Positions 3,592-35,640 of a DNA stretch of 36,223 nt are shown here, one piece after another; within the stretch, counting starts at the first letter, position 1; each line of letters begins with the position of its first letter. A program made the position numbers and the translations under genes. The notes under the pieces were generated by a model. The model saw only the letters and a list, made by a program, of their open reading frames with translations, made no database searches and was not told the origin of the DNA. The DNA comes from a virus (Duplodnaviria > Heunggongvirae > Uroviricota > Caudoviricetes). The stretch covers positions 1 to 36,223 of the IMG/VR virus record IMGVR_UViG_2778261231_000006; one strand, written 5' to 3'.

Positions 3592-6039
3592 TTAACCGTC
3601 ATGCATCATGCTGGCACGGGCGCGCACACGTTTATCCCGCTCGTATTTTTCGAGCGCATCCTGTAACTGGCGGTCAAGCTGTGTCCCCGGCGCAGTACCA
3701 CCCGTCAGGCTGATGTGATATTCGTTTTTACTCTGGTCCACATAAGAGCGGCCAGCCGGTGCCGTGACCGGCTGATAAGCCTGATAGCCTGCATAAGAGC
3801 TGGTCGCCGGAATATAACCACCGCTGCCATACGTGGCGGCTTGAGTTCTGGCGGCGGTCTGGTCAAGTGTGTCTGACTCTTTGTTGATAACACCGAGTTT
3901 TTCCAGTACCCAGTCAATACCGCTGCGCAGTTTGTTGAACGCATTAAGCGGCAGCATCAGCGCGTCAGCCAGTGCCTGCCCGAACATGACCCCCGTGTCA
4001 CGGCAACTGTTCAGGGTGTCCTGAGTGGCTTTGACCGGAGCAATCAGGTTTTTAAACCACTGCCACGCGGCCTGTAACTTTTCACCCAGCCAGTCAAACA
4101 CCGGCTTAAGTGGCGTGAACAGTTCCCCCACCGGCGCAAATGCCACTTTCAGCCCTTCAACCACACCGCCAAAGAATGCGCTGACAGGCTCCCAGTATTT
4201 ACGGATAAGCAACGCCCCGGTGACAATTGCGGCCACCACGGCCACAACCGGCCAGCTAATAGCCCCGATGGCGGTCATAACAGCACTGCCAACCGTCGTG
4301 AAGACTGCCCCCATTGCGCCTGCTGCCGCGATGATGGCATTGATGCCGGTGATAACCGGCCAGGCTACGAGGCCAATGGCACCGATGATGCCAGTCAGCG
4401 CCAGCGCGCCACCGGCAATGATGCCGATGGTTGACGCCAGTGATTTGTTTTTCTGGATCCAGCCGTCGAGTTTTAACACATACTTTGTGGCCGTCTGCGT
4501 GAGCTTACGCAGCGCGCCTTCCTGCTGGTCAAACAGGTCAGTCCCCACTGCCTCATAAGCGGACTGAAACTCTTTAAAGTCACCGCCTAGGTTGTCCTGC
4601 ATGATATTTACCAGCTTGGCGGTCTTCCCGTCTGAGGCTTTAAACGCAGCGGTCAGTTTGTCCAGCTTTCCGGTTGAGGCGGCAGTCATCAGCACGGCGG
4701 CGGCTGAGCTGGCCTCCTCCCCGAAAATAGTTTTCATGTATTCAGCCTGCTGGGCAGTACCGAGCCGGTTTTTCTCAAAACTGGCCTGCATTTCTTTCAG
4801 AATGGTAAATATTGGCCGGGTGTTTCCCTTGCTGTCTGAGGTTTTCACTCCAAGCTCTTTGAGTGCATCCCATGCTTTTCCCGTCGGTGCCTGCAGGCGG
4901 CTTAACACGGCACGGCTTCCCGTCCCCGCCATTGAGCCTGTGATTTTTGCATCATGCAGCGCCCCGACCATTGCGGCGGTTTCTTCAATGCTGACACCGG
5001 CATTTTTTGCCACAGGTGCGGCATAGGTCAGCGCATCGCTCATGCCGTCAAAATCGGCGGCGGTTTTGTTCATCGTCATGGAGAGAACATCCCCGATATG
5101 AGCGACCTTATCGTTTGAAAGCTGAAAGGCGGATTTCATCCCCATCAGCAGGGCGGCGTTTTCTTCCATCGTGCGGCGGTTCGCCAGCGCCATATTCAGC
5201 GTGACCGGCGTTGCCGCCTGAATGGCATCAACATCCCCACCCGCTTTCGCGATGATTATCTGTGCACCGGCCGCATCATCCGCCGAGGCGGCGGTATTGT
5301 CGCCGAGCTGGCGCGCCTGTTTGCGTAGTGCGGTCATTTCGGCGGAGTCTTTTGCCACTCCGAGCACGGCCTGCAATTCTGAGTTTTTCTGCGCAAACTC
5401 ATAACCGGGCATCAGCAACTTAACTCCGGCCATCGTTCCCGCCGCCGCAATCCCCACACCGGCAGCGCCTACTGAGGCCATATTTCCGGCCAGTTCCTTT
5501 CCGGCCTGATAACGCTGTTTGACTGCGTTAAGTTTTGCCTGTTGCGCACTGACACGCGCCAGCGCGTCGCGCTGACGGTTAAGCTGTGCGGTGGTTTCAC
5601 TGATACGTTTTTTCAGTCCCTGCTCATCATGTGCAAGATTGCGGGTATTAATTCCCACAGCGGCCAGTTCCCGCTGCTGGCGTTTAACGGAATCCGTCAG
5701 GCGGTTATATTTCGCCTGTAAGTCCTCCGCCGCTCGCTTTGCGGATTCCAGCACTTTCGCCTGAGCACGGGTCGGACGTTCGGTGTTTTTAAACTGTGTG
5801 GCAAGGGCTTCGGCTTCCTGCCGTGCCTTTTCAAGTGCATGACCAGTCACGGCGAGCTGCGCACTGGTCTTGCGAAATCCCTCAATACGGGATGCGTGAC
5901 CGTTCAGCTCGCGCAGTGATTTTTGTGTTTCCCGGATATCCCCCGACAGCGACTTGCTCGCTGTGCGGATGGATTTAAACGGGCGGGATGCCTGGTCAAC
6001 AGCCCTGAGCAATACCTGTAATTTTACATTGTTACTCAT
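3592..6039 (-). CDS. T: Tail tape-measure protein gpT
   Basis: 815 aa, coiled-coil N-terminal half, Ala/Gly-rich hydrophobic core, position between E' and U. Confidence 0.93.
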   Translation of the reverse strand: MSNNVKLQVLLRAVDQASRPFKSIRTASKSLSGDIRETQKSLRELNGHASRIEGFRKTSAQLAVTGHALEKARQEAEALATQFKNTERPTRAQAKVLESAKRAAEDLQAKYNRLTDSVKRQQRELAAVGINTRNLAHDEQGLKKRISETTAQLNRQRDALARVSAQQAKLNAVKQRYQAGKELAGNMASVGAAGVGIAAAGTMAGVKLLMPGYEFAQKNSELQAVLGVAKDSAEMTALRKQARQLGDNTAASADDAAGAQIIIAKAGGDVDAIQAATPVTLNMALANRRTMEENAALLMGMKSAFQLSNDKVAHIGDVLSMTMNKTAADFDGMSDALTYAAPVAKNAGVSIEETAAMVGALHDAKITGSMAGTGSRAVLSRLQAPTGKAWDALKELGVKTSDSKGNTRPIFTILKEMQASFEKNRLGTAQQAEYMKTIFGEEASSAAAVLMTAASTGKLDKLTAAFKASDGKTAKLVNIMQDNLGGDFKEFQSAYEAVGTDLFDQQEGALRKLTQTATKYVLKLDGWIQKNKSLASTIGIIAGGALALTGIIGAIGLVAWPVITGINAIIAAAGAMGAVFTTVGSAVMTAIGAISWPVVAVVAAIVTGALLIRKYWEPVSAFFGGVVEGLKVAFAPVGELFTPLKPVFDWLGEKLQAAWQWFKNLIAPVKATQDTLNSCRDTGVMFGQALADALMLPLNAFNKLRSGIDWVLEKLGVINKESDTLDQTAARTQAATYGSGGYIPATSSYAGYQAYQPVTAPAGRSYVDQSKNEYHISLTGGTAPGTQLDRQLQDALEKYERDKRVRARASMMHDG

Positions 6040-7046: not shown

Positions 7047-8237
7047 TTAATTGCTGTTAACCGAGGTGACCAGATTTGCCAGGTATTTATCGGTAATACG
7101 CTGGCGCAGGGTCAGGTTTTCAAGAGGAGGCACCGGTGTATAGTCGTAGTCGATATACAGTTTTCCTGCCTTGAGGGTTTCCGCATCGTTGGATTCTTCG
7201 CTGAACCAGCAGGTCGCATCCACGATATAGCCGTTTGTTTTCAGCTCACGGAATTTGGCATTAATGCCGTCAACGATGTCGCGAATCAGCGTTGCGGTGA
7301 TGGGCTTATCCACCGCCCACATGTGCGCCTCAGCCATCGTGTCGGCCAGCACCTGCGCAGTGCGGGTGTAGTTTTCAAAGAGGAACAGCGGGTCATCAGA
7401 GCAGGTACGGTTACCCCAGAAGCGGAAACCGTCGCGGCGAATCAGCGTTGTGACGCCTGACTCGTTAAGCAGGTCAGCATCGGTGCCGGACTCCTGCAAA
7501 TCCCAGAATACAGATGCGCTGATGCCGGTAACACCGTTTACCCCGACGTTGGACAGCGTTTTATGCCAGCCCTGCTCCTGGTCGATTTTAGCGCGCAGAC
7601 CCAGCGCACGGGCGGTGGCATACGCGGTGGCGGTGGTACTGGTGACCGTATCCCATGCGAGGAAATCCGGCCAGATGACCATCAGCTCACGCTGGCTGAA
7701 ATTCTGGCGGTAGGCTTTCACCTCGGAAATGGTCTTACAGCCCCATGCGCTGATATATCCGAAAGCGCGCAGCTTCTGACAGACTGATGCCAGTGCAACA
7801 GCCACCTCTTTGGTATCCAGCCCCGGCACACCAAGAATACGCGGTTTAACACCGGTTACCGACTCCGCCGCCAGCAGGGCTTTCAGTCCGGTGTACTGAC
7901 CGTTTTCGTCAGTGGTGCCGATAATATTGGAAACGGTCTGCGCGAGTTTCGTTTCCTCGTCATCACCGGTGCCGTCTTCCACGCGCACGACAACGGTGAC
8001 CGGTTTTGACTGGTCAGCGATGGCCTGCAACGATGCCGCCAGCGTGCCTTTTTTACCGGCCTTTGCAATTGCGCTCTGCACATTGGTAATCAACACCGGT
8101 TTATTGAGGGGGAAGGTTTCCGCATCTGCATCGCTGGCCGTGCAGACCATGCCGACAATGGCAGTGGATACGGTGGAAATGACGCGGGTGCCGTCGTTAA
8201 TCTCCAGCACCTGCACGCCGTGATGATAGTCACTCAT
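7047..8237 (-). CDS. FI: Contractile tail sheath protein gpFI
   Basis: 396 aa, MSDYHHGVQVLEINDGTRVISTVSTAIVGMVCTASDADAETFPLNKPVLI. Confidence 0.93.
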   Translation of the reverse strand: MSDYHHGVQVLEINDGTRVISTVSTAIVGMVCTASDADAETFPLNKPVLITNVQSAIAKAGKKGTLAASLQAIADQSKPVTVVVRVEDGTGDDEETKLAQTVSNIIGTTDENGQYTGLKALLAAESVTGVKPRILGVPGLDTKEVAVALASVCQKLRAFGYISAWGCKTISEVKAYRQNFSQRELMVIWPDFLAWDTVTSTTATAYATARALGLRAKIDQEQGWHKTLSNVGVNGVTGISASVFWDLQESGTDADLLNESGVTTLIRRDGFRFWGNRTCSDDPLFLFENYTRTAQVLADTMAEAHMWAVDKPITATLIRDIVDGINAKFRELKTNGYIVDATCWFSEESNDAETLKAGKLYIDYDYTPVPPLENLTLRQRITDKYLANLVTSVNSN

Positions 8238-8360: not shown

Positions 8361-8742
8361 TGTCCTAGTTTGTACTCACTCATTTTCCGACTGACAATTT
8401 ACATAGCCAAAACGCTATCAAATCTGACAGTCTGCTTTGAGCGAGGAGCGGAAGTTCGCAATTTTGATCACCGCACAAGGCGCATTACTAGTATTACTAT
8501 GTTTTGTTAAAAGGAAATTTTTCTATGCCTAAACACGAAAGTTACAATGGCATTTTTATTTCAAATAACGGTCAATTCTCCGGATTTCTTAAAGTTTCGG
8601 CTCCCCAGTGCCCCGGGGCGTCAGCCCAATTGCGCTAACCGGCAGAGGCGGCATTTCGGGCCTGGCGGCTTGGCCTTTGTAAGAAAAAAACGACCTAAAT
8701 CAAATTTTTGCAGTTAAATACTGCGCGAGTCAATAATTAATA

Positions 8743-8771
8743 TTGTTTTAGATAATTACTTTTAATATATT
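8743..8771 (+). promoter_or_regulatory. Candidate sigma70 promoter for the 604-aa cargo gene (-35 TTGTTT 8743..8748, 17-bp spacer, -10 TATATT 8766..8771)
   Basis: Hexamers and spacing read by eye; the AT-rich context makes chance matches likely. Confidence 0.25.
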
Positions 8772-8883
8772 ACGTGTTAATGTAATCTTCTGAATCTAAA
8801 CTATTCCATTTCCCATTTGATTTTCTCTGAAGTGCTGTCTAGTTGTTCTTGAATAATCAAATGTTAATTATAAGGACATCAAA

Positions 8884-10698
8884 GTGACTAAATATATTTT
8901 CAGTATCAATGATTTAATTTTATCAAAAAATGCACAATTTTTTAAGATAAAAAAACCTTTATCTAGAAATAAAATAAAAAATCTATTTAGAAGCATATCC
9001 TCGATAAAAGATGGTGTCTTTCTTATAAATAAAATTAAATCTGAAGTTGTTGTAGATAATGGGAATTTAACTTACTCTTTGGTGTCTTTTAAAGTTCTAG
9101 AAGAGCCTTCATTTCTACAAGGCACTAGCATTTCAGAAAGCAAGTATGCGTATCTAATGATCTTGGAGGTTCAGGATTTTTTAATAATTTCGAAGAAAAA
9201 TGTTGATGCAATTGAAAGCGAGTTGGAAAGGTTCATAGAATACTTTGAGTTTGATAAATTTTCAAATTTTAATGGAAGGCTGAATCCTGAGTATGAAAAA
9301 ATTAGCATGAGGAATATGTCACTGTCAGATTCAGTGATAAGAAATAGAACAGTGGAAGCAAAAAATCTAAGTGGCATTCTTTCTCCTAACACGACTGGAC
9401 GTTCAATTCCAGGGACATTTAGAGTCAAGACAGGAAATGACATATTTACTTTAACACCAAATACTTCACGAATAGGCTACAAAGATAAAAAAGTGGATTT
9501 TTTTAATTTCTGCTCATGGGCAATAGCTACAGTAAATGAATTATCTAACACAGCCTCTTTGTCAAGTAAGCTAATGGCAGGTTTCTCTTCCCCTATTACT
9601 TTGAGTGAATTATTAGCAAAAAAAGTCAAGCCAAAAGCTATTTTTATAGATCTTAGCGAGTTGGATGATATGGTGCGTGGCACGTCCCATACTTTTACAC
9701 TAACAAAAAATGTGCCTCATGGAACGGTGACGTTAAGTTCTGTTGAACTTGACAAATTTTTCAATGGATTTAAATCATCATATTTCTTAGATGGTGAAAC
9801 GCTAACCAATTTAAGATTCAAATTCAAATGTCGTCTGAGATTCAATACTAAGGTTGTGACTATAGTATCCAAATATCTCGATGGTATAATGATTAGTGAA
9901 AATGGTTCTCAGTTAATGTCGCTTAGTAAATATATTAACAAGTTTAAGCCATTCACTATAACCTTCGATTCCCCCCAATATTGCTATCATGGTCGTTCGT
10001 GTTTTGAAGATAAAACGATGTTAAATAATTTGAATATTTTCCTGTCCGTTTTTGATGATAGCTTTGATTTTTCAACAATCAGATCGGAAAAAGAGAAAGA
10101 TGACAAACAATCTTATCCAGAAAATATTAAAAGATTTCCAGTGAGATCGCTATTTAGACGAGTGGAGAATATCTATTCAAATAAAGATGCTATTGTAATT
10201 TGTGATGATATGAATGATGAGTGGGCCGATCATATTGTGCTGGATATCACGACAGGAAATCCATCCATAAAGTTTATTCATTCTAAATATATTAAAAAAG
10301 AGAGCTATGGCGCCAGTAAATTTCATGAAGTTATAAGTCAAGCTTTAAAAAATATTGGCAGATTACATTCACCAAAAGAACTTTACCTTGATAAATATGA
10401 TAATGAATGGTCTTCAAAATATTTACAAACGCAGATTAGTAGAATTAGACCAATTGACACTTCCAGGAATGACATTGAGTTAGCTCTTGACAAAATTAAT
10501 GAGAGTCCGAAAACTAGTAGGGAGTTAATATTAGCTGCTCCATTTTTAAGAAAAAAAATGTTAATCGATGAGGTGGAAATCATCAAGAGAAATCAGTCAG
10601 CCAAACCTTATACTGTTCAGCTAATCTGGCTTATAAATACATTTTTGAGTGCATGTGTTGAGTACGGAGTAAAACCCAGCATTCTATGTAAGAAGTGA
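8884..10698 (+). CDS. Hypothetical 604-aa cargo protein at the Z/fun moron site; soluble, function unknown
   Basis: Long uninterrupted ORF in AT-rich DNA, GTG start 7 nt after AAGGA, antisense to the flanking late genes; no Walker A seen by eye; acidic segment VICDDMNDEWADHIVLD...IHSK around residue 440. Confidence 0.8.
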   Translation: MTKYIFSINDLILSKNAQFFKIKKPLSRNKIKNLFRSISSIKDGVFLINKIKSEVVVDNGNLTYSLVSFKVLEEPSFLQGTSISESKYAYLMILEVQDFLIISKKNVDAIESELERFIEYFEFDKFSNFNGRLNPEYEKISMRNMSLSDSVIRNRTVEAKNLSGILSPNTTGRSIPGTFRVKTGNDIFTLTPNTSRIGYKDKKVDFFNFCSWAIATVNELSNTASLSSKLMAGFSSPITLSELLAKKVKPKAIFIDLSELDDMVRGTSHTFTLTKNVPHGTVTLSSVELDKFFNGFKSSYFLDGETLTNLRFKFKCRLRFNTKVVTIVSKYLDGIMISENGSQLMSLSKYINKFKPFTITFDSPQYCYHGRSCFEDKTMLNNLNIFLSVFDDSFDFSTIRSEKEKDDKQSYPENIKRFPVRSLFRRVENIYSNKDAIVICDDMNDEWADHIVLDITTGNPSIKFIHSKYIKKESYGASKFHEVISQALKNIGRLHSPKELYLDKYDNEWSSKYLQTQISRIRPIDTSRNDIELALDKINESPKTSRELILAAPFLRKKMLIDEVEIIKRNQSAKPYTVQLIWLINTFLSACVEYGVKPSILCKK

Positions 10699-10770
10699 AT
10701 TGAATTATCCAAGGCTGGCTGTTTATGTAGGCCAGCTTGCTTTCTTTAATATTTAGGAATTTGATTTAAA

Positions 10771-11353
10771 GTGAAATTAGGCCCATTTATTAACATTGCT
10801 AACTCTAACCAAATTCCTAAATCCCATCTTCCGCCTCACAATTCCTTAATTCAAACTAGACGTTTCCCGCGCAATACAAAGCAATCTCTTGATAACAATG
10901 GTATGGAACTGAACGTTGAGTGCCTAGTAGGTGAAGAAGATGGGGTATATGGCCTGATATTTGAGCCCTGAGGACTGGCGCATAGAAACAAAGATTATAA
11001 TATTGCCATCGATTATATCATTGGACGACTTATTGATTCCGGGGTAAACAAAGGCGTTGTGTATTTGGCCTCATCATCAACCGGAAGACATATACCATCT
11101 ATAGCGGAAAGAAAAATACATCCTGATGATGTAATTTTCTTTAGTGGGAAACTACCCTTCCGATATTTCCCAAAAAATGTGTATGTATCAGACTCATTTG
11201 AACAGTACTGCTAAAAAGGATGCACCATCAGGGAACAGAACTGAGCGAGTAATGATAAATGTTCCTAGTGTTAATAGTGCTGAATTTTGGAAACCTATCA
11301 TCTACGGAGATACATCAGTGCTTTTCGAGCCACTAATGATGAGAGTGTTCTAA
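10771..11353 (+). pseudogene. Disrupted ORF chain (in-frame TGA at 10969..10971, then apparent +1/-1 shift near the A6 run 11172..11177); likely pseudogene
   Basis: Frame of the 10771 ORF stays open past the TGA (…GLIFEP*GLAHRNKDYNIAIDYIIGRLIDSG…FPKNVYVSDSFEQYC) and a one-base change at the A6 run joins it to the 11144..11353 ORF. Confidence 0.4.
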
Positions 11354-11474
11354 GTAAAATGGTCAGTAAGCTAATATAAATTCCTTTGAACGAGTCCGAG
11401 GGACATAAAAAACTGGAACATTAGAAAGAGTTCAGAAGGTTTATATTCGGGATCCTGCTGTTAAATCTTGTGTA

Positions 11475-11711
11475 TTGCAAGGGAATAAGGGCGTTTGTGA
11501 AAGATGTAGTGAAAATACACCGTTCTTAATAAATGGCGATATCCCATATCTCGAAGTGTATCATGTGATACCTCTTTCTTTATCTGGTGCTGACACCATA
11601 AGCAATTGTGTTGCATTATGCCCGAATTGCCATCGGGCATTGCATTACAGTCAAAATTCGGAAGAGCTGATTGAGGAACTTTATATAAACATAAAAAGAT
11701 TGCAAAGATGA
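11475..11711 (+). CDS. HNH-nuclease motif ORF, probably a C-terminal fragment (open frame extends back to 11409 with no ATG/GTG)
   Basis: …RDPAVKSCVLQGNKGVCERCSENTPFLINGDIPYLEVYHVIPLSLSGADTISNCVALCPNCHRALH: CxxC…H…N…CxxCH…H pattern typical of HNH; TTG start only. Confidence 0.5.
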   Translation: MQGNKGVCERCSENTPFLINGDIPYLEVYHVIPLSLSGADTISNCVALCPNCHRALHYSQNSEELIEELYINIKRLQR

Positions 11712-11833
11712 GTGTTCCGTTTTGCTGGGATATTTATAGGTGAGCAACGTCCCCTCCTGGCACAGAGCGGACTCTCAGATTAGGCTTTACTCTGTGCCAT
11801 AGATATGTAAGCTCACACCAGAGCTCATACAAC

Positions 11834-12361
11834 TTATTGCGGCATTTCCGGCCATTCAGGATTTGCAGGATCCACACGACTGACCAGAACACTGTAGCGT
11901 TCCCATGCCTCCAGTCGACTGCGCTCCTCATCTGTTGCCATATTCAGCCTGACAGCGCGCTCCAGCGGCAAAATCACGGATTCAGCATCTGCAAGAAGTC
12001 TGGCTTTCCGATTTTCTGCCTGCTGCTGCAATTCCTCTGCCGTATAAATTCGTTTAATCACTGTACCGTCCTTAAACATCCAGTTCCCTGAAATGTCCGC
12101 CCGTCGGTTAGCAGTAATATCCGGCACTTCAACAACACTTAATCCATCCGGTCTGATAGCTGTCACATCCTTTTCCACATAGCGGATAATATTATCTTTG
12201 TCGTACGCTATTTTTATCGTGTCATCAGCAAAATACTTTTGTTCTTCGTACCAGTTCTTACCATCTTCTGAAAAAAACCAGACAACATCAAAGTCCTTTG
12301 TCAATTGATATTGTTCAACCGTTTTTGGATTACCTGCCATTATATTTATCAAATGCTGCAT
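11834..12361 (-). CDS. G: Tail fibre assembly chaperone gpG
   Basis: 175 aa, immediately downstream of [45 protein letters not shown]. Confidence 0.9.
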
Positions 12362-12364
12362 AAA

Positions 12365-14683
12365 TTATACCTGCGCCACGTTATACCAAGTCCCGTTAAT
12401 GTATTTCTGCACCGGTCTGTAATATACGCCACCAATGTTATCGGCAGAGTTTGAGCCGGTATCCTGAACAATAATGCCGGAATATACACACCCGGACGGT
12501 GCCTGATGTGTCCATGTCATGCCATTGTTAGCAGGTTTGTATGTGGCAGCACCACCAAGCCGGATATCCCGGACATAGCGTGAATCAAAATTACTATAGT
12601 TAGATGGTGATACCTGCCCGTTAACAGCAAAAGTGATGCTGTTATCTGTATTTCTCTGACTGTAAAAATGCCAGCCTGCATCATCACCTAATTCAGCCAC
12701 CACAGGACGACTTGAGTTTCCCCACAAATTGAATGCGGCTTCCTTCGTGGATGTATTGCTGCTGCTGACCGTGAACTTTTTCCCGCTACCGGCACGTACT
12801 TTGGTACTTGAGGCAATATCACCAGTAACACTCAGGCCATGCCCCATTGACACTCCGCCATTAGCGTTATTGATAGTCAGCGGCCTTAAACCGTTCCATG
12901 TCCCAAATTTATCACCAGAGGCCGTCAGCATTAAATATGTGCTGCCACCATCATTCCTGATAAAGAATCCATAATTGCCATAAGCAATGCGCAGACCATT
13001 AGCACTGAGTGATGTAATTTCACCTCTAGAACGGAGACCATAAGCGGAGCTGAGTGATAATTCTTCCTGAGCGTCATAGTTTCCTGTCGCCCAGCGAATT
13101 ACCCCGCCCTGCACTGTTTCATGCCAGATAGTGTCTCCTTCTCCACCACGAAACTTTCTGAGATATTTTTTGCCGCCTCTGGTGCCTGAACATAAGGCCG
13201 TAGACATATAGGCATTCTGGCTTCCGCCATCCTGATTAATCGTTCCGGTCATTGAGTCGCCCTGACGATTCCAGTCACGACGCCAGCCGGGGGAGTAGCC
13301 GTCCCCATGATTAATGTAAGTGAATTGTGCGCTGGTTGTACCGCCACCGCTTGATGTTGTCGGCGTGGTCACTCGGATAGTGATTGCAGATTTAGTTCCC
13401 ATGACCTCGACTACACAACCAGCCAGGTGGATATCACCACATCCGGTATCCGTAATGATTTTGTTATTTGCATATGACCAGGAGCCTTTGCACATCCAGT
13501 ACGGATGATTAAATGCACCACGGGAATCCAGCCATTCAATAAACTGAGCGGTTGTCCAGTTTCCGGCTTCAGTGCTCAAAGCGCCGCTATAAGCACGACA
13601 GGCACCGATATTTTTCGTAAAGGTATCCTTTCCCGGAATATCCGCACCGTTCTGATCTTTCTGAAGACGTTTTTCAGCATTGTCATAGGCAGACTTCACT
13701 GCTTTTGGCGTTGCCGCGAGGGTTTCAGAATCACTGTTGGTGGCGCTACTGAGCTGGACAAGACCTTTTCGCGCAGTGGTGGCATCCTGTGCAGTGTATT
13801 TCCCGTTAGCAAGGTCATACGCTGTCTTAACCGCCTTTGGTGTTGCCGCAAGCGTTTCAGAATCGCTGTTGGTGGCGCTACTGAGCTGAACAAGGCCTTT
13901 TCGCGCGGTGGTGGCGTCCTGTGCAGTGTATTTCCCGTTAGCAAGGTCATATGCTGCCTTTACCGCTTTCGGCGTTGCGGCGAGCGTTTCAGACGTGCTG
14001 TTGGTCACACTACTGAGCTGAACAAGGCCTTTTCGCGCCGTGGTGGCATCCTGCGCAGTATATTTCCCGTTAGCAAGGTCATAGGCGGCCTTTACCGCTT
14101 TCGGCGTTGCGGCCAGTGTTTCAGACGTGCTGTTGGTCGCACTGCTTAACTGAGTAAAACCTTTTGCGGTCAGCGAGGCGTCCGGGTGACGTCGTGACTG
14201 TTCGTGCTCTGCAATTTTGTCATCAACGTAATCCTGCGTTGCCATCACCGTTGTAGTGTCAATGGTCAGCTCCACTGAGGCCACACTGCTGACGATGATG
14301 ACCATGCGGCAGGTCTGCGAACGCCCTGAGCCTTCGGCAAGAGCTGGCTTATAACTTTCGGCCATGTTCGCCACGGCAATTAACGTTCCCGCATCATCGT
14401 ACAGGCCAAGCTCACGCATCCAGAAACCGCCCACCTCCGGCGGAATAACCAGCTCTGCGATAATATAATTACTGTTTCGTTTGTCCTGACTGATTTTGTT
14501 CAGCGCATGTCGCCAGACTTCGTGGATAAGCCCGGTCTGTCCGGCATCCGGGACAGGCAATTTACCACCGCCATCCCCGACGGCCATCGTGGTAATGTTG
14601 ACCTTCCGCCCTCCCGGTGCGGTTGCCGCTGCCAGCTTTGCTGCACCGGCAGTGGTGATAACGGTTCTGAATTTTGTGCTCAT
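12365..14683 (-). CDS. H: Tail fibre protein gpH (772 aa) with internal tandem repeats
   Basis: MSTKFRTVITTAGAAKLAAATAPGGRKVNITTMAVGDGGGKLPVPDAGQTGLIHEVWRHALNKISQDKRN; position between I and G. Confidence 0.92.
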   Translation of the reverse strand: MSTKFRTVITTAGAAKLAAATAPGGRKVNITTMAVGDGGGKLPVPDAGQTGLIHEVWRHALNKISQDKRNSNYIIAELVIPPEVGGFWMRELGLYDDAGTLIAVANMAESYKPALAEGSGRSQTCRMVIIVSSVASVELTIDTTTVMATQDYVDDKIAEHEQSRRHPDASLTAKGFTQLSSATNSTSETLAATPKAVKAAYDLANGKYTAQDATTARKGLVQLSSVTNSTSETLAATPKAVKAAYDLANGKYTAQDATTARKGLVQLSSATNSDSETLAATPKAVKTAYDLANGKYTAQDATTARKGLVQLSSATNSDSETLAATPKAVKSAYDNAEKRLQKDQNGADIPGKDTFTKNIGACRAYSGALSTEAGNWTTAQFIEWLDSRGAFNHPYWMCKGSWSYANNKIITDTGCGDIHLAGCVVEVMGTKSAITIRVTTPTTSSGGGTTSAQFTYINHGDGYSPGWRRDWNRQGDSMTGTINQDGGSQNAYMSTALCSGTRGGKKYLRKFRGGEGDTIWHETVQGGVIRWATGNYDAQEELSLSSAYGLRSRGEITSLSANGLRIAYGNYGFFIRNDGGSTYLMLTASGDKFGTWNGLRPLTINNANGGVSMGHGLSVTGDIASSTKVRAGSGKKFTVSSSNTSTKEAAFNLWGNSSRPVVAELGDDAGWHFYSQRNTDNSITFAVNGQVSPSNYSNFDSRYVRDIRLGGAATYKPANNGMTWTHQAPSGCVYSGIIVQDTGSNSADNIGGVYYRPVQKYINGTWYNVAQV
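13690..14165. repeat. About four tandem copies of a 114-bp (38-aa) coding repeat inside H (…SETLAATPKAVKAAYDLANGKYTAQDATTARKGLVQLSS…)
   Basis: Near-identical 114-bp units visible in DNA and in the H translation (residues about 173..336); reminiscent of phage tail-fibre repeat modules. Confidence 0.8.
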
Positions 14684-17189: not shown

Positions 17190-18263
17190 ATGAACACTTA
17201 CTTTTTCTCATCAAAAACAATGAAAGAATTGTTCAAAGATTATCTGGTCTTTTTGAACACGCTGACACCCAGCACAACCTTTGAATCAAACAGAAACAAA
17301 ATAATTGCTCAAGCAATAGACTTCATTTCTGAAAACCCAGAAGATTGGGACAAAAAATCCCAGTACAACATTGTCAGGATTGGTAATACCTTTACAAGCT
17401 TATTAAAAGAAAAGGGAGAGGATAACAACAGCATCAATTTTATATTCACTTGTTTTTTTAGATTTATTATTGAGCCAAGTATTCTCTCTCCTGAGACAGA
17501 TACTTTCTTTTCACCACTAAAAACCATCAAGGATTTCGCGCTGTATAACTATAATGAATTCGATGAACAAAGCAGAGCACAGATAGACTTTTCTCTTAGA
17601 GAACTACCATTAGCAATGGTTAAAGAAGTTTTAAGCTCAGGCAATGTGGACACATATAAAAAATATATTGATAGTTTAAGCGAAGGTCGTCAATTTTTCG
17701 AAAAATGCGAGTCCTTTTTAAAAGAACAACATACCAAAATAGAGTCAATTAAAGAATCATTGAAAGGGTATGAGGTCGCATTTAATTTTGTTGGATTGTT
17801 TGAAGGCTTTAATTCACTTGGCAAAAAGAAAGATCGTGAAATTTTACTATCAAGAATAATCCTTGTCATCTTAGCTATAATCATCCCATCCCCGCTGATA
17901 TACTATGGAGTGCATAAATTACCAACTCTCGAAACGACAAATGCTGCCACATATTTCATGTCAGCACTACCTTTTGCATCAGTCACATTGATTTTCATTT
18001 ATTACTTTAGAGTTGTACTGATAAATCACATATCGTTACGAACTCAGATTATGCAAATAGAACTCAGAAAGAGCCTTTGTCAGTTTATTCAGAGTTATAG
18101 CGACTATTCCTCAGAGATAAGGAAAAACAATCCGGAAGCGCTTTCAAAATTTGAAGATGTCGTATTTTCGAACATCATGCTATCCGATGATAAGATACCA
18201 TCTACATTTGATGGCATAGAGCAAATAGCATCGTTAATCAATTCATTAAAAAATGGCAAGTAA
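17190..18263 (+). CDS. Hypothetical 357-aa cargo protein with two predicted C-terminal transmembrane helices, at the S/V moron site
   Basis: AT-rich ORF antisense to the late operons; hydrophobic stretches ILLSRIILVILAIIIPSPLIYYGV and ATYFMSALPFASVTLIFIYYFRVVLI; own terminator downstream. Confidence 0.75.
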   Translation: MNTYFFSSKTMKELFKDYLVFLNTLTPSTTFESNRNKIIAQAIDFISENPEDWDKKSQYNIVRIGNTFTSLLKEKGEDNNSINFIFTCFFRFIIEPSILSPETDTFFSPLKTIKDFALYNYNEFDEQSRAQIDFSLRELPLAMVKEVLSSGNVDTYKKYIDSLSEGRQFFEKCESFLKEQHTKIESIKESLKGYEVAFNFVGLFEGFNSLGKKKDREILLSRIILVILAIIIPSPLIYYGVHKLPTLETTNAATYFMSALPFASVTLIFIYYFRVVLINHISLRTQIMQIELRKSLCQFIQSYSDYSSEIRKNNPEALSKFEDVVFSNIMLSDDKIPSTFDGIEQIASLINSLKNGK

Positions 18264-27897: not shown

Positions 27898-28794
27898 CTA
27901 TGATTTCGACACAACTATTTTCCCCAAATCAAAACTAAATTCGACATCCCCATTTACGATATTTTCATTTGTCACATGCTCATCAAAAAGGTCACTAACA
28001 TCATACCCCGACTGAAACACTGGGCTCATGATAGCCACGTCGGTGAATGGCTCTTTTTCATGTGTTATATAATATTGACCATAAACATTTGCAGATTCAT
28101 CTGCATCATTAAGACTAAGGACTGTTTTTGCTTTGACTTCAGGCATCAGAGAAAAATCAATATTATTCAACAAACACAGTAAGATGCCTGCTATTGTTCT
28201 CCTGTTATTATCAAGCGGCATCAAGTCCACCCCTGGAATCTCCTTCCGAAGCAATATTTTCAGCTCATTAAATAAAGAGTCGAACTTAATTGCGTCAGAA
28301 CAATTGAGTAACGACAAAGCTTCATTAATCATTCGCCCTTCATTGGAACCAATTTCTGATGTTAACTTACAAACACCATCATTAACAATATACGATTTTT
28401 TGTTATTAAGCTTCTTCCTCGCTGTAATTACCTGCCCCCCCTTTAAGTTTAACTTCTCCTTTAAAAACTCATCACTGAACATTCTTAATTGCAGTCTGAT
28501 TAATGTAGGTAAGTATTTCGGGTATTCATTTAACTCTGGTTTAACAGCATGCTTGTCGCGTCCAAATTTTAAACTTAATAACAAATGATTCCTCAGCATG
28601 ATATCCTTTATCTCGCCTTGATCTCTCCGATGATTATGGGCAACAAAACTCCCAATTTCAAAAATACACTTGGGCGCACTCGGCAACTCACGGGCCGTAA
28701 CAAAAAGAACATCAATATCACTATCAGTGAAACTCCCATCCTTTAATCTTCTCAACACTCTCTCTATTCTTGAGATTGCTTTACTTTTATTCAT
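27898..28794 (-). CDS. Hypothetical 298-aa cargo protein at the cos-proximal (tin/old) moron site; function unknown
   Basis: AT-rich ORF MNKSKAISRIERVLRRLKDGSFTDSDIDVLFVTARELPSAPKCIFEIGSF…; ATG with upstream AAGG/GAAAGAA; no TM helix or nucleotide-binding motif seen by eye. Confidence 0.75.
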   Translation of the reverse strand: MNKSKAISRIERVLRRLKDGSFTDSDIDVLFVTARELPSAPKCIFEIGSFVAHNHRRDQGEIKDIMLRNHLLLSLKFGRDKHAVKPELNEYPKYLPTLIRLQLRMFSDEFLKEKLNLKGGQVITARKKLNNKKSYIVNDGVCKLTSEIGSNEGRMINEALSLLNCSDAIKFDSLFNELKILLRKEIPGVDLMPLDNNRRTIAGILLCLLNNIDFSLMPEVKAKTVLSLNDADESANVYGQYYITHEKEPFTDVAIMSPVFQSGYDVSDLFDEHVTNENIVNGDVEFSFDLGKIVVSKS

Positions 28795-33136: not shown

Positions 33137-33637
33137 TTAATGCAGATATTGCTCTGGTTTTACCGACGTCAGAATTGTCGGTGCATACTCAAACAGGCTG
33201 AACAATTCACGTAATGCACGGAATAAAGCATCACGCCAGTAACATGATTCTTCATTAATTCGCCAGTATGGCTGGTTGAATTCTTTTTCAGTCAATCCGG
33301 CATGCATAAATAAAGTACGACGCTGACTGACTGTTAAAAAACTAATATATGCATACTCACTTGCGCCAACCTGACGGCGTTTTGAGAATGCCCCACGCAA
33401 TTCATCAATTGCGCAAACCAGCCGTTCACGTTCGACGTCGTTCATTTCTTCAAAACGCATCGTTGCGTGACGCTGTTTTAACTGCGCATGGAAGCAAACC
33501 GTTAGCCGTTCGCGTTCCATCATCTGATTATAATAATCGCATGTCTCCTGCCAGCGAGGGACGGCCAGATGCTTACCAATTATCCGGCGCATAGCTGCTG
33601 GCTGTTTTTCAACGAGATTGAGCGTCATCACTGTCAT
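33137..33637 (-). CDS. B: Replication protein gpB
   Basis: 166 aa, MTVMTLNLVEKQPAAMRRIIGKHLAVPRWQETCDYYNQMMERERLTV. Confidence 0.9.
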   Translation of the reverse strand: MTVMTLNLVEKQPAAMRRIIGKHLAVPRWQETCDYYNQMMERERLTVCFHAQLKQRHATMRFEEMNDVERERLVCAIDELRGAFSKRRQVGASEYAYISFLTVSQRRTLFMHAGLTEKEFNQPYWRINEESCYWRDALFRALRELFSLFEYAPTILTSVKPEQYLH

Positions 33638-33828
33638 TTCCAGACCCTCCGGCTTTTCAGAAAGGTCAGAGCCTTTTTTAACGGACTCTGTTTTTTGGTG
33701 CGGATAATGATTCCCTTACGCCCCTTACCGTGGGTGATGGTGAAGTCAATCGCCCTGGGGCTTTCGTTACGCAATAACTGAGCAATACAACGAGGCTCAT
33801 TCATACGGTTCTCCTTAACGTGGTTCAC
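33634..33828 (-). CDS. Small early protein between cox and B (P2 orf78-like position), 64 aa
   Basis: ATGA overlap with B start; basic small protein. Confidence 0.55.
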   Translation of the reverse strand: MNHVKENRMNEPRCIAQLLRNESPRAIDFTITHGKGRKGIIIRTKKQSPLKKALTFLKSRRVWK

Positions 33829-34090
33829 CGAGACCTAACCACATCAACCAGCCGTCACGAATCTCTTTAGGACGGCTTTCATAAGCCAGTTTTAGTCCGT
33901 TATTCCATGCCGGAAGGTATACCCAATATTCACCAGCACGCCCCGATACTGACTGAGGGTCAGTAATCTCAATAACTGGTAATTTCCCTTTCTCAATCAT
34001 GCCCCTTACAGCTCTTGGAGTTTTGCCAATGAGTTTTGCAAACTCCTGATAAGGCACGGCATCAGTCACGCTTACAAGCTGTCTATTCAT
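33815..34090 (-). CDS. cox: Cox (excisionase / early repressor of Pc)
   Basis: 91 aa; …AVPYQEFAKLIGKTPRAVRGMIEKGKLPVIEITDPQSVSGRAGEYWVYLPAWNNGLKLAYESRPKEIRDGWLMWLGLGEPR matches remembered P2 Cox. Confidence 0.9.
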   Translation of the reverse strand: MNRQLVSVTDAVPYQEFAKLIGKTPRAVRGMIEKGKLPVIEITDPQSVSGRAGEYWVYLPAWNNGLKLAYESRPKEIRDGWLMWLGLGEPR

Positions 34091-34114
34091 CTGCTACGAT
34101 TCTCCCTTAGTGCT

Positions 34115-34133
34115 TCTAATGGCTCCTAATGGC
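34115..34133. promoter_or_regulatory. Candidate immunity operator: direct repeat CTAATGGCT twice with 10-bp period in the cox/C divergent promoter region
   Basis: tCTAATGGCTcCTAATGGCTaat; P2-type C repressors bind direct repeats overlapping the early promoter. Confidence 0.4.
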
Positions 34134-34211
34134 TAATTATTGCCTAAAAGGATAACTCCAGAAGCACAACATTTCATACCATCAGCAAGAAATTACGCAA
34201 TCGGAGTAATT

Positions 34212-34511
34212 ATGTCAATAGACGTTTCGGAGAAGTTGAAGCTAATCCGTGAATCTGAAAGGTTAAACCGTAAAGAATTCAGTGAATTAACTGGTGTAGC
34301 CTACAGCTCACTTTCGAGCTATGAGAGCCGGTCAAAAAACGCTGGAGTTGAAGCCATAATGAAGGTCTTACAACATCCTAGATTTACTAAATATACTTTG
34401 TGGTTCATGACTGATCAGGTAGCTCCAGAAGCCGGGCAAATTGCGCCCGCTCTCGCACACTTTGGGCAAAACGAAACAACGTCGCCCCACTCCGGTCAAA
34501 AGACTGGTTAA
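34212..34511 (+). CDS. C: Immunity repressor C (99 aa); N-terminal DNA-binding half diverged from P2, C-terminus conserved
   Basis: MSIDVSEKLKLIRESERLNRKEFSELTGVAYSSLSSYESR…FTKYTLWFMTDQVAPEAGQIAPALAHFGQNETTSPHSGQKTG; start at internal ATG 34212. Confidence 0.85.
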   Translation: MSIDVSEKLKLIRESERLNRKEFSELTGVAYSSLSSYESRSKNAGVEAIMKVLQHPRFTKYTLWFMTDQVAPEAGQIAPALAHFGQNETTSPHSGQKTG

Positions 34512-34626
34512 CAATTTATCGTGAATATATTCATCACAAGTGCCTACTATTGGTGGCTAAATTTCAGCCACCACGAAAAAAGCGATTAGTAGTAGCAAAA
34601 AAAAGTACCACTCGGAGGGTTTTCTG

Positions 34627-35640
34627 ATGGCAATCAAAAAACTCGATGATGGTCGATATGAAGTGGACATCCGCCCTACTGGACGTAACGGAAAACGCAT
34701 CCGTAGGAAGTTTGATAAGAAAAGCGAAGCTGTCGCTTTCGAAAAATACACGTTGTACAACCACCACAATAAAGAATGGCTATCAAAACCAACAGACAAA
34801 CGACGTCTGTCGGAACTGACACAGATCTGGTGGGATTTAAAGGGTAAACACGAAGAGCATGGGAAATCTAATCTTGGAAAAATTGAAATCTTCACAAAAA
34901 TAACGAATGACCCATGCGCATTTCAAATCACGAAATCCCTTATCAGCCAGTACTGCGCCACCCGAAGAAGTCAGGGTATTAAACCTTCGAGTATCAATCG
35001 TGATTTAACATGTATTAGCGGCATGTTTACAGCCCTGATTGAAGCGGAGTTATTCTTTGGTGAGCACCCTATCAGAGGGACAAAGAGGCTTAAGGAGGAA
35101 AAACCAGAAACAGGCTATCTCACACAGGAAGAAATTGCCTTACTGCTTGCAGCACTTGACGGCGACAATAAAAAGATTGCGATTCTTTGCCTGAGTACAG
35201 GAGCACGTTGGGGAGAAGCAGCTCGTTTGAAAGCAGAAAATATCATCCATAACCGCGTCACGTTTGTTAAAACGAAAACAAACAAACCACGCACCGTCCC
35301 GATCTCAGAGGCTGTTGCCAAAATGATCGCGGATAACAAACGAGGTTTTTTATTCCCTGATGCTGATTACCCTCGCTTCAGACGAACAATGAAAGCAATA
35401 AAACCGGATTTGCCAACGGGGCAAGCCACACATGCACTAAGGCACAGCTTTGCCACTCATTTCATGATTAATGGAGGAAGTATTATCACGCTACAACGGA
35501 TACTAGGTCACACGCGGATTGAGCAAACTATGGTTTACGCTCATTTTGCGCCAGAGTACCTTCAGGACGCCATTTCTCTTAATCCGCTAAGAGGTGGTAC
35601 TGAGGCCGAGAGTGTCCACACAGTGTCCACAGTAGAGTAA
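34627..35640 (+). CDS. int: Tyrosine integrase
   Basis: 337 aa, MAIKKLDDGRYEVDIRPTGRNGKRIRRKFDKKSEAVAFEKYTLYNHHNKEWL…HALRHSFATHFMINGGSIITLQRILGHTRIEQTMVYAHF (R…HxxR…Y catalytic region). Confidence 0.95.
   Translation: MAIKKLDDGRYEVDIRPTGRNGKRIRRKFDKKSEAVAFEKYTLYNHHNKEWLSKPTDKRRLSELTQIWWDLKGKHEEHGKSNLGKIEIFTKITNDPCAFQITKSLISQYCATRRSQGIKPSSINRDLTCISGMFTALIEAELFFGEHPIRGTKRLKEEKPETGYLTQEEIALLLAALDGDNKKIAILCLSTGARWGEAARLKAENIIHNRVTFVKTKTNKPRTVPISEAVAKMIADNKRGFLFPDADYPRFRRTMKAIKPDLPTGQATHALRHSFATHFMINGGSIITLQRILGHTRIEQTMVYAHFAPEYLQDAISLNPLRGGTEAESVHTVSTVE
35611..35631. promoter_or_regulatory. Candidate integrase arm-type sites: direct repeat AGTGTCCACA twice (reverse complement TGTGGACACT) inside the int 3' end
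   Basis: agtgtccaca-c-agtgtccaca read directly; same GTCCACA motif as in the ogr-proximal arm. Confidence 0.45.

Follow-up and report, generated by a model that had tools for sequence, protein, structure and literature searches.

A decayed EcoKMcrA-family restriction gene beside PDC-S71 in the cargo slot of a P2-like prophage

Judged from its sequence, the region downstream of the PADLOC candidate gene PDC-S71 in the window (the whole stretch of 36,223 nucleotides analysed here) is very probably a relic, now without function, of an EcoKMcrA-family gene for a type IV (modification-dependent) restriction endonuclease that acts as a single-gene system. The window corresponds to an Escherichia coli prophage of the P2-like type, inserted between yegQ and yegR/yegS. 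The pseudogene lies on the + strand at 10879..11711 and comprises 277 codons, with an NEco-type N-terminal domain, a C-terminal HNH domain and its native stop at 11709-11711. The enzyme family is well known, and the stretch is an ordinary McrA-type pseudogene in a known kind of phage cargo locus. As a case of defence-cargo decay it is clean and dated: promoter and start would have been lost by fusion, with drift following in three lineages, and the dead gene has been carried along passively by a live neighbour as the pair spread in genomic islands and a cargo slot of prophages.

Identity of the gene and its lesions

The first-pass annotation had proposed that a nuclease gene in this region is inactivated and decaying. 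This proposal is borne out by the full-length McrA homology of a single HNH gene, by its lesions and by its neutral drift. The conceptually repaired protein aligns with the PADLOC mREase_IV model over its entire length (1-277/277, E 1e-121) and is 62% identical in amino acid sequence to K-12 McrA. In a tblastn search with K-12 McrA, residues 5-277 are covered in three frames (E 1e-84), while at the nucleotide level 10889-11704 is 68.5% identical to K-12 mcrA. For the last fragment, there are matches to EcoKMcrA residues 201-277 (PDB 6GHC; E 3e-33) and to the Pfam HNH family (PF01844; E 1e-12). The suggested search with the repaired protein for intact orthologues and their length returned proteins of 277 amino acids that are 81-83% identical to it, and one of these orthologues (L012) shows 89.4% nucleotide identity across 10877-11772. 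The end-to-end homology to K-12 mcrA, to the orthologues and to mREase_IV thus identifies 10879-11711 as one EcoKMcrA-family gene. A search of the phage database gave a single McrA homologue (61%) and nothing closer, and the NCBIfam search matched no McrA model, giving only a weak IscB HNH match.

EcoKMcrA is the product of mcrA/rglA of the e14 prophage in E. coli K-12 (PDB 6GHC), a type IV, 5mC/5hmC-dependent HNH restriction endonuclease. Members of the family combine an N-terminal modified-cytosine sensor with a C-terminal HNH nuclease (PMC6182155, PMC7145662). The remnant resembles EcoKMcrA in its 277 codons, in its two-domain layout (with the C-terminal HNH domain serving dimerisation and nuclease activity), in being prophage-borne and in keeping the zinc cysteines, H229, N243, H252 and H256. 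Unlike EcoKMcrA, it has neither a start nor a promoter of its own, it carries three stops, three frameshifts and H228Y, and it evolves neutrally. It also falls in a distinct sub-clade, with intact members in contigs of Klebsiella, Serratia-like and metagenomic origin.

The lesions were mapped by codon-aware alignment against K-12 mcrA, the ES7 homologue and the close intact orthologue L012. The three open reading frames noted at first pass (10771-10971, 11144-11353 and 11475-11711) exist, lie in three different frames and, as had been suggested, are parts of one gene; the repair that had been envisaged, of one TGA and one base, underestimated the number of lesions and misplaced them. On the + strand, AAG stands in the ATG position (10879-81), and the start codon is lost. 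The in-frame TGA reported at 10969 is real and replaces the codon for the family-invariant Trp31 (10969..10971); K-12 mcrA, the ES7 homologue and L012 all have TGG here. Further downstream, again on the + strand, an extra T at ~11130 (GATGA-G to GATGATG) is a +1 insertion that shifts frame 1 to frame 2. Next come a nonsense change of Tyr85 (TAT to TAA, in the corrected frame; 11132-34) and a -1 deletion at 11331/2 (CCT ACT to CC-ACT), which restores frame 1. Lys168 is changed from AAA to TAA (11377-79), and a second -1 deletion, at 11407-14, moves the frame from 1 to 3; most parsimoniously, the base lost is a C of the CCT after the A6 run at 11407-11412. A frameshift had initially been placed at another A6 run, 11172-11177. 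The intact orthologue has these bases too, in frame, as CAA AAA ATG; the run is therefore ancestral, and the real shift lies at ~11130. Stops in all three frames, reported for 11354-11408, are indeed seen around 11351-11407, but the supposed gap is McrA sequence, namely residues 152-199 interrupted by two frameshifts and the TAA. With three stops, three frameshifts and an AAG start, the window copy has no uninterrupted frame with a start codon.

The last fragment had been credited with a textbook HNH signature. The HNH domain is there, as the matches to PF01844 and 6GHC indicate, but a metal ligand of its active site is lost, His228 being replaced by Tyr (TAT; 11559..11561, +). Four of the five active-site residues required in EcoKMcrA (H228, H229, N243, H252 and H256) are kept. 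In EcoKMcrA, the change H228A abolishes both cleavage and restriction (PMC6182155). The cysteines of the CX2C...CX2C zinc site (C207, C210, C248 and C251) are all present in the window copy. Among 132 family-invariant positions, defined across ten intact family members, 18 are changed in the remnant, compared with 1-4 in close intact relatives.

The upstream gene, the junction and the cassette

Upstream of the remnant lies an intact gene for a protein of 604 amino acids (8884..10698, +), which corresponds to the single-gene phage-defence candidate PDC-S71 of PADLOC (E 1e-218). PDC-S71 is one of 145 single-gene candidates obtained by guilt-by-embedding (bioRxiv 10.1101/2024.01.29.577857); our literature search on PDC-S71 found nothing, and its protein matched no domain in Pfam or NCBIfam. 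The neighbour matches the PADLOC model end to end, and in 26 other genomes it behaves as a unit of one gene. It is separate from the gene that left the remnant, and no functional link between the two was found. With an omega of 0.19 against L074 (a diverged copy of the cassette, see below) and of 0.06 against Erwinia, PDC-S71 is under purifying selection and is the live cargo of the cassette. For work on PDC-S71, the unit to clone is the 604-aa gene alone.

Homology to the Erwinia PDC-S71 locus (L014) extends from 8653 to 10875, with 87% nucleotide identity, and homology to mcrA begins at 10877; the fusion junction, together with the lost start codon, is therefore placed at 10876..10881 (+). 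The 3′ flank of PDC-S71 (10699..10875, +), which is conserved with the Erwinia locus, runs to 3 nt before codon 1 of mcrA. Hence the first open reading frame, read at first pass as nuclease throughout, is nuclease only in part: its codons 1-36 (10771-10878) belong to the conserved flank 3′ of PDC-S71. The GTG at 10771 was considered as a true start with an N-terminal extension and rejected, since it lies in the PDC-S71 flank and is GTT, GTA or GCT in other copies. In a 325-aa relative (P0005), the upstream extension is unrelated. Five intact orthologues have in common a conserved region of 110 nt upstream of the ATG, which is wholly absent in the window, as are an mcrA promoter and 5′ leader. 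Because the junction removes the conserved upstream region of mcrA exactly at the start codon, it reveals a secondary fusion of two unrelated cassettes. Within the PDC-S71 3′ flank, a terminator-like 9-bp hairpin (10712-10738) is followed by CTTTCTTT; the hairpin has a long loop and an unremarkable z-score.

The remnant and PDC-S71 are flanked by two minus-strand genes, FI for the tail sheath (7047-8237) and G for tail-fibre assembly (11834-12361), which places them in the variable G-FI (Z/fun) cargo slot. The GC content of the cassette is 24-39%, against ~50-58% in the phage genes, marking it as AT-rich and compositionally distinct foreign DNA. P2-like phages reportedly have variable cargo ('moron') loci at Z/fun (G-FI) and old/tin (A-Q), as Nilsson and colleagues are said to have described in 2004. 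The A-Q hotspot of these phages, and not G-FI, was later characterised by Rousset et al. 2022 (PMC9122126), and among papers citing Nilsson et al. 2004 we found no detail on the G-FI locus. The cassette agrees with such loci in its position exactly between G and FI, in its AT-richness and in its defence-type genes; it differs from them in that half of the cargo is dead and in being found in islands outside phages as well. In the IMG/VR collection, P2-like contigs carry other cargo in the same G-FI slot.

Nine complete E. coli genomes contain the cassette, in three kinds of context. It occupies the P2 G-FI slot in 730V1 and EC2641, a CP4-44-like island (with a small integrase, Ag43 and a YeeP-type GTPase) in STEC309, 711, 316 and MB06231, and an island adjoining paoD in E19057, VTB96926v and EC130. 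Strain 730V1 (E. coli O19:H7) is 99.96% identical to the window, excluding 33141-34779, where it has an IS5. The block common to all genomic contexts is ~8438-11772 (3.3 kb). On the left, the shared sequence starts from ~8438, within a boundary (8428..8452, +) that constitutes one half of a ~75-nt quasi-palindromic element (GTCTGCT-TT-GAGCGAGG-AGCGGA). On the right, the native 3′ flank of the mcrA cassette (11712..11772, +) is conserved with intact orthologues and includes the other half of the boundary element (11747-11772, +), and the contexts diverge beyond ~11764-11772.

Neutral decay and alternative readings

Two truncated protein matches led us to two diverged metagenomic copies of the same fused cassette: L074, with 92.3% nucleotide identity over 8432-11767, which adjoins an integrase and Mrr-type genes, and L075, with 90.5% identity over 10086-11763. 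Both share the junction seen in the window, and in both the ATG is gone (AA- in L074, where a further nucleotide is deleted, and TAG in L075). None of the other lesions of the window is present in either. L074 has its own set, with a TAG at Trp31, deletions of 1, 3 and 7 nt, a 1-nt insertion and a TAG at Leu255, while L075 has lost three zinc cysteines (C207Y, C210Y and C248F) and has a -1 frameshift near His252. The Trp31 codon was hit independently, giving TGA in the window and TAG in L074.

Parsimony assigns 31 nonsynonymous and 7 synonymous changes to the window lineage, 24:3 to L074 and 24:5 to L075, or 79:15 for the three together, with 3:3 on the shared stem and 31:40 among intact orthologues. 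The ratio of 79:15 fits the neutral expectation of 78-81% nonsynonymous changes (p 0.2-0.5) and differs from that of the intact orthologues (Fisher p 6e-8). Over all sites, the remnants of the window and L074 are at a distance of 0.116, near the synonymous distance of PDC-S71 (dS 0.132), and divergence is uniform along 10700-11770. All three remnant copies evolve neutrally. The same trend appears among ten near-identical E. coli copies, with 7 variable sites in the 833 bp of the remnant against 1 in the 1815 bp of PDC-S71 (p 0.0017).

These patterns suggest how the gene died. An mcrA cassette would have been joined to the 3′ flank of the unrelated PDC-S71 at a point 3 nt before the mcrA start codon, an event that would have stripped it of its promoter and 5′ leader, with the ATG lost at or near the fusion. 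We infer that fusion and start loss inactivated the gene and that everything else is later drift, an order (fusion first, then decay) that is the most parsimonious one for the three copies. Drifting neutrally, the lineage of the window would then have acquired its three stops, three frameshifts and 18 changes of invariant residues, including H228, and presumably no McrA protein is made and no function is left. As far as sequence alone can tell, transcripts of PDC-S71 may run on into the remnant, and fragments of it may be translated. The initial loss may have been an accidental promoter deletion, or it may have been favoured by conflict with a methyltransferase: the arrival of a cognate methyltransferase makes methyl-dependent enzymes toxic (Ishikawa et al. 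2010, PMC2993543), and a conflict of this kind is described for Mrr and type III modification (PMC3152355). Such a conflict would give a plausible selective reason for inactivating a McrA-type enzyme, but accidental promoter loss and drift fit the data equally well.

Could the gene be intact in the organism and the stops and frameshifts be errors of sequencing or assembly, as the first-pass annotation had considered for a homopolymer? One frameshift (11407-14) does adjoin an A6 run, a classic site of error, but the length of the A run is unchanged relative to the intact orthologue, and the remaining lesions are substitutions or lie outside homopolymers. Moreover, the nine complete E. coli genomes were assembled independently and come from different countries and laboratories. 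Their copies of these 1061 bp are 99.6-100% identical, collinear and without indel differences, so every lesion is common to all nine. The two diverged metagenomic copies are dead as well, and in the window 18 invariant residues are also substituted, in a neutral pattern; we regard this explanation as scarcely credible. Programmed recoding, in which stop read-through and ribosomal frameshifts would yield full-length McrA, has only the collinearity of the fragments in its favour. Ribosomes would have to start at a codon other than ATG, read through three stops and change frame three times, both forwards and backwards, where there are no slippery motifs. The lesions differ between copies, the sequence evolves neutrally, and the probability of this reading is close to nil. 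A further reading makes the C-terminal fragment, either the 78 codons from the TTG at 11475 (11475..11711, +) or the 51 annotated in RefSeq, a functional stand-alone HNH nuclease gene. RefSeq has a CDS in the nine genomes for the last 51 codons (11556-11711), as 'HNH endonuclease signature motif containing protein'; the frame is open in ten E. coli copies, H229, N243, H252, H256 and the four zinc cysteines are kept, and there is only one private nonsynonymous change in these 51 codons. However, that change is H228Y, at a metal ligand whose replacement in H228A inactivates the enzyme (PMC6182155), and STEC316 has R253Q at an invariant residue. In the diverged copies the frame is destroyed, by the 7-nt deletion and a TAG in L074 and by C207Y, C210Y, C248F and the frameshift in L075. 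The TTG at 11475 is an internal Leu codon in intact orthologues, and upstream of it there is no Shine-Dalgarno sequence and no promoter above chance; the consensus scan for promoters and terminators gave nothing above chance (11 promoter-like sites, 13.1 expected). The 78-codon frame diverges at the neutral rate. Private changes amount to 7N:4S in this frame and to 1N:3S in the last 51 codons, the latter too few to prove the neutrality of that sub-segment alone. A separate small gene, also floated at first pass, is accordingly a most improbable reading, and the 78-codon frame is best regarded as a by-product of decay. The RefSeq CDS of 51 amino acids, a by-product of annotation, carries no pseudogene flag, so readers of motifs and callers of defence systems could mistake it for an effector or for half of a two-gene system with PDC-S71.

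A two-gene defence system, in which the nuclease was the effector beside the 604-aa protein and is being silenced for its toxicity, is very improbable too. The two genes are adjacent and co-oriented, they occur together in 9/9 E. coli genomes and in the two diverged copies, and the consensus scan found no strong terminator between them; the hairpin and the T-rich tract 3′ of PDC-S71 count against this reading. No McrA-like sequence was detected within 6 kb of any of 26 PDC-S71 relatives from GTDB genomes (Gammaproteobacteria and Bacteroidota), the Erwinia relative with a 92% identical protein among them, and PDC-S71 was found beside none of the five close intact McrA orthologues, which have retron-type RT/SLATT, TIR/caspase, TolA-like and acetyltransferase genes as neighbours. 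EcoKMcrA works alone (PMC6182155), and neutral evolution of mcrA had already set in by the time the known fused copies last shared an ancestor. Since these 26 and five loci show no pairing of PDC-S71 with McrA and EcoKMcrA is self-sufficient, the partnership suggested at first pass is not supported; the exact cut of the mcrA upstream region at the start codon again argues for a secondary fusion of cassettes. It is likewise unlikely that the dead DNA is kept for a non-coding role, as a 3′ UTR or spacer required for expression of PDC-S71, or to space the boundary or recombination element of the cassette. In its favour, the remnant has a live gene on one side and the conserved right-hand boundary element on the other, and three lineages keep ~830 bp of dead DNA with only small indels (1-7 nt) over a divergence of ~0.11-0.12. 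Against it, substitutions are evenly spread, at a density that matches the synonymous rate of PDC-S71, no sub-block is conserved, the Rfam search of the cassette matched no family, and PDC-S71 relatives in other genomes manage without the remnant. The absence of large deletions across the older split is mildly notable and is the sole hint of anything beyond an ordinary pseudogene. The dead DNA has been kept somewhat longer than bacterial deletion bias might lead one to expect.

Persistence of the remnant and the boundary element

For the decayed mcrA gene, hitchhiking would account most simply for its persistence. The remnant lies between PDC-S71, which is under selection, and the right border of a mobile 3.3-kb cassette (~8438-11772), and we infer that this position is the reason that it has not been deleted. 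The identity of at least 99.6% among the E. coli copies indicates that they are very recent, and the cassette has spread recently in E. coli through the P2-like cargo slot and two kinds of chromosomal island. A more specific proposal is tentative and in our estimate more doubtful than probable: the remnant would survive locked in a mobile cassette whose borders are marked by the quasi-palindromic element, which would mediate site-specific exchange of defence cargo between the G-FI slot and islands. If so, the dead mcrA is a passenger that could not be lost without a precise deletion.

The element at the cassette borders is ~75 nt long and has four alternating 7-mers around a variable central loop, with the consensus GTCCGCT-yCTGGCACnn-AGCGGAC-variable loop-GTCCGCT-rtGAGCGAnn-AGCGGAC. 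As single-stranded DNA it would form a long imperfect hairpin (z -3.9, -5.3 and -1.8 for the three copies folded). The element may be a site of cassette recombination. In a comparison with integron attC sites, the outer AAC...GTT is suggestive, but the R''/R' consensus is absent, and the contexts diverge in the middle of the element, not at a GTT core. In islands the element is found near a 200-aa tyrosine recombinase, an arrangement that is integron-like. It is also present between G and FI in P2-like contigs, upstream of the Erwinia PDC-S71 gene, and downstream of 4/5 intact mcrA orthologues (L012, L013, L044 and L040, the last by similarity search only). Among 5426 complete E. coli genomes, 1210 have the element one to three times, always unannotated.

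The element at the cassette borders

The borders of the cassette coincide exactly with a quasi-palindromic element of ~75 nt, with the consensus (A)ACGTCCGCTyCTGGCACnnAGCGGAC-N16-20-GTCCGCTrtGAGCGAnnAGCGGAmGTT. The stems are conserved while the loop varies, and as single-stranded DNA the element would form a long imperfect hairpin. It lies at 8428-8452 and 11747-11772 in the window, at 1706-1737 and 5067-5098 in locus L002, at 1992-2042 in L012 (a locus with an intact mcrA orthologue) and at 3106-3159 in L054. Erwinia also has the element (553-601 and 1762-1808 in the PDC-S71 locus L014). In P2-like contigs it is found between the tail-fibre-assembly gene G and the tail-sheath gene FI. One to three unannotated copies are present in each of the 22% of complete E. 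coli genomes that carry it, and Rfam holds no family for it. The element may be a cassette recombination site, and Nilsson et al. 2004 may already have covered it.

In CP4-44-like islands, a 200-aa tyrosine recombinase (PF00589; WP_001305361.1) is positioned one cassette away from an element-flanked PDC-S71 cassette [locus L079, 16220-16822, corresponding to NZ_CP041435.1 816219-816821]. A further genome (L077) also encodes this protein close to the element, and in L076 a different 200-aa "site-specific integrase" is encoded close to it. The arrangement, which runs from recombinase to cassette, element, cassette, element and cassette, resembles that of an integron.

The mcrA remnant and its relatives

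RefSeq/PGAP does not flag the mcrA pseudogene in nine genomes, where window positions 11556-11711 are instead annotated as WP_270753767.1, a 51-aa "HNH endonuclease signature motif containing protein". This CDS is likely an annotation artefact. The Trp31 codon has become a stop independently in two lineages, as TGA in the window (10969-10971) and as TAG in L074, a diverged copy of the fused cassette. The existence of further truncated or decayed members (P0041, P0053 and P0055), one of them a 185-aa protein comprising only the N-terminal part on a 787-kb Raoultella terrigena contig, suggests that this McrA sub-clade decays often.

Other features of the prophage

Two further cargo ORFs have no match in Pfam or PADLOC: one of 357 aa (17190-18263, plus strand) between the baseplate and virion-morphogenesis genes, and one of 298 aa (27898-28794, minus strand) in the cos-proximal A-Q hotspot. 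In P2, this hotspot carries old/tin.

Within the tail-fibre gene (12365-14683, minus strand), and especially at 13682-14168, a unit of ~44 aa (TAQDATTARKGLVQLSSxTNSxSETLAATPKAVKxAYDLANGKY) is repeated in tandem, with three to four copies. These copies are seen in the translation and also as self-matches with 87% nucleotide identity.

The sole large difference between the window and the near-identical E. coli strain 730V1 is at 33141-34779, where 730V1 has IS5 and a truncated integrase. In the window the integrase gene (34627-35640) is retained; its 337-aa product has both an Int_N and a Phage_integrase domain.
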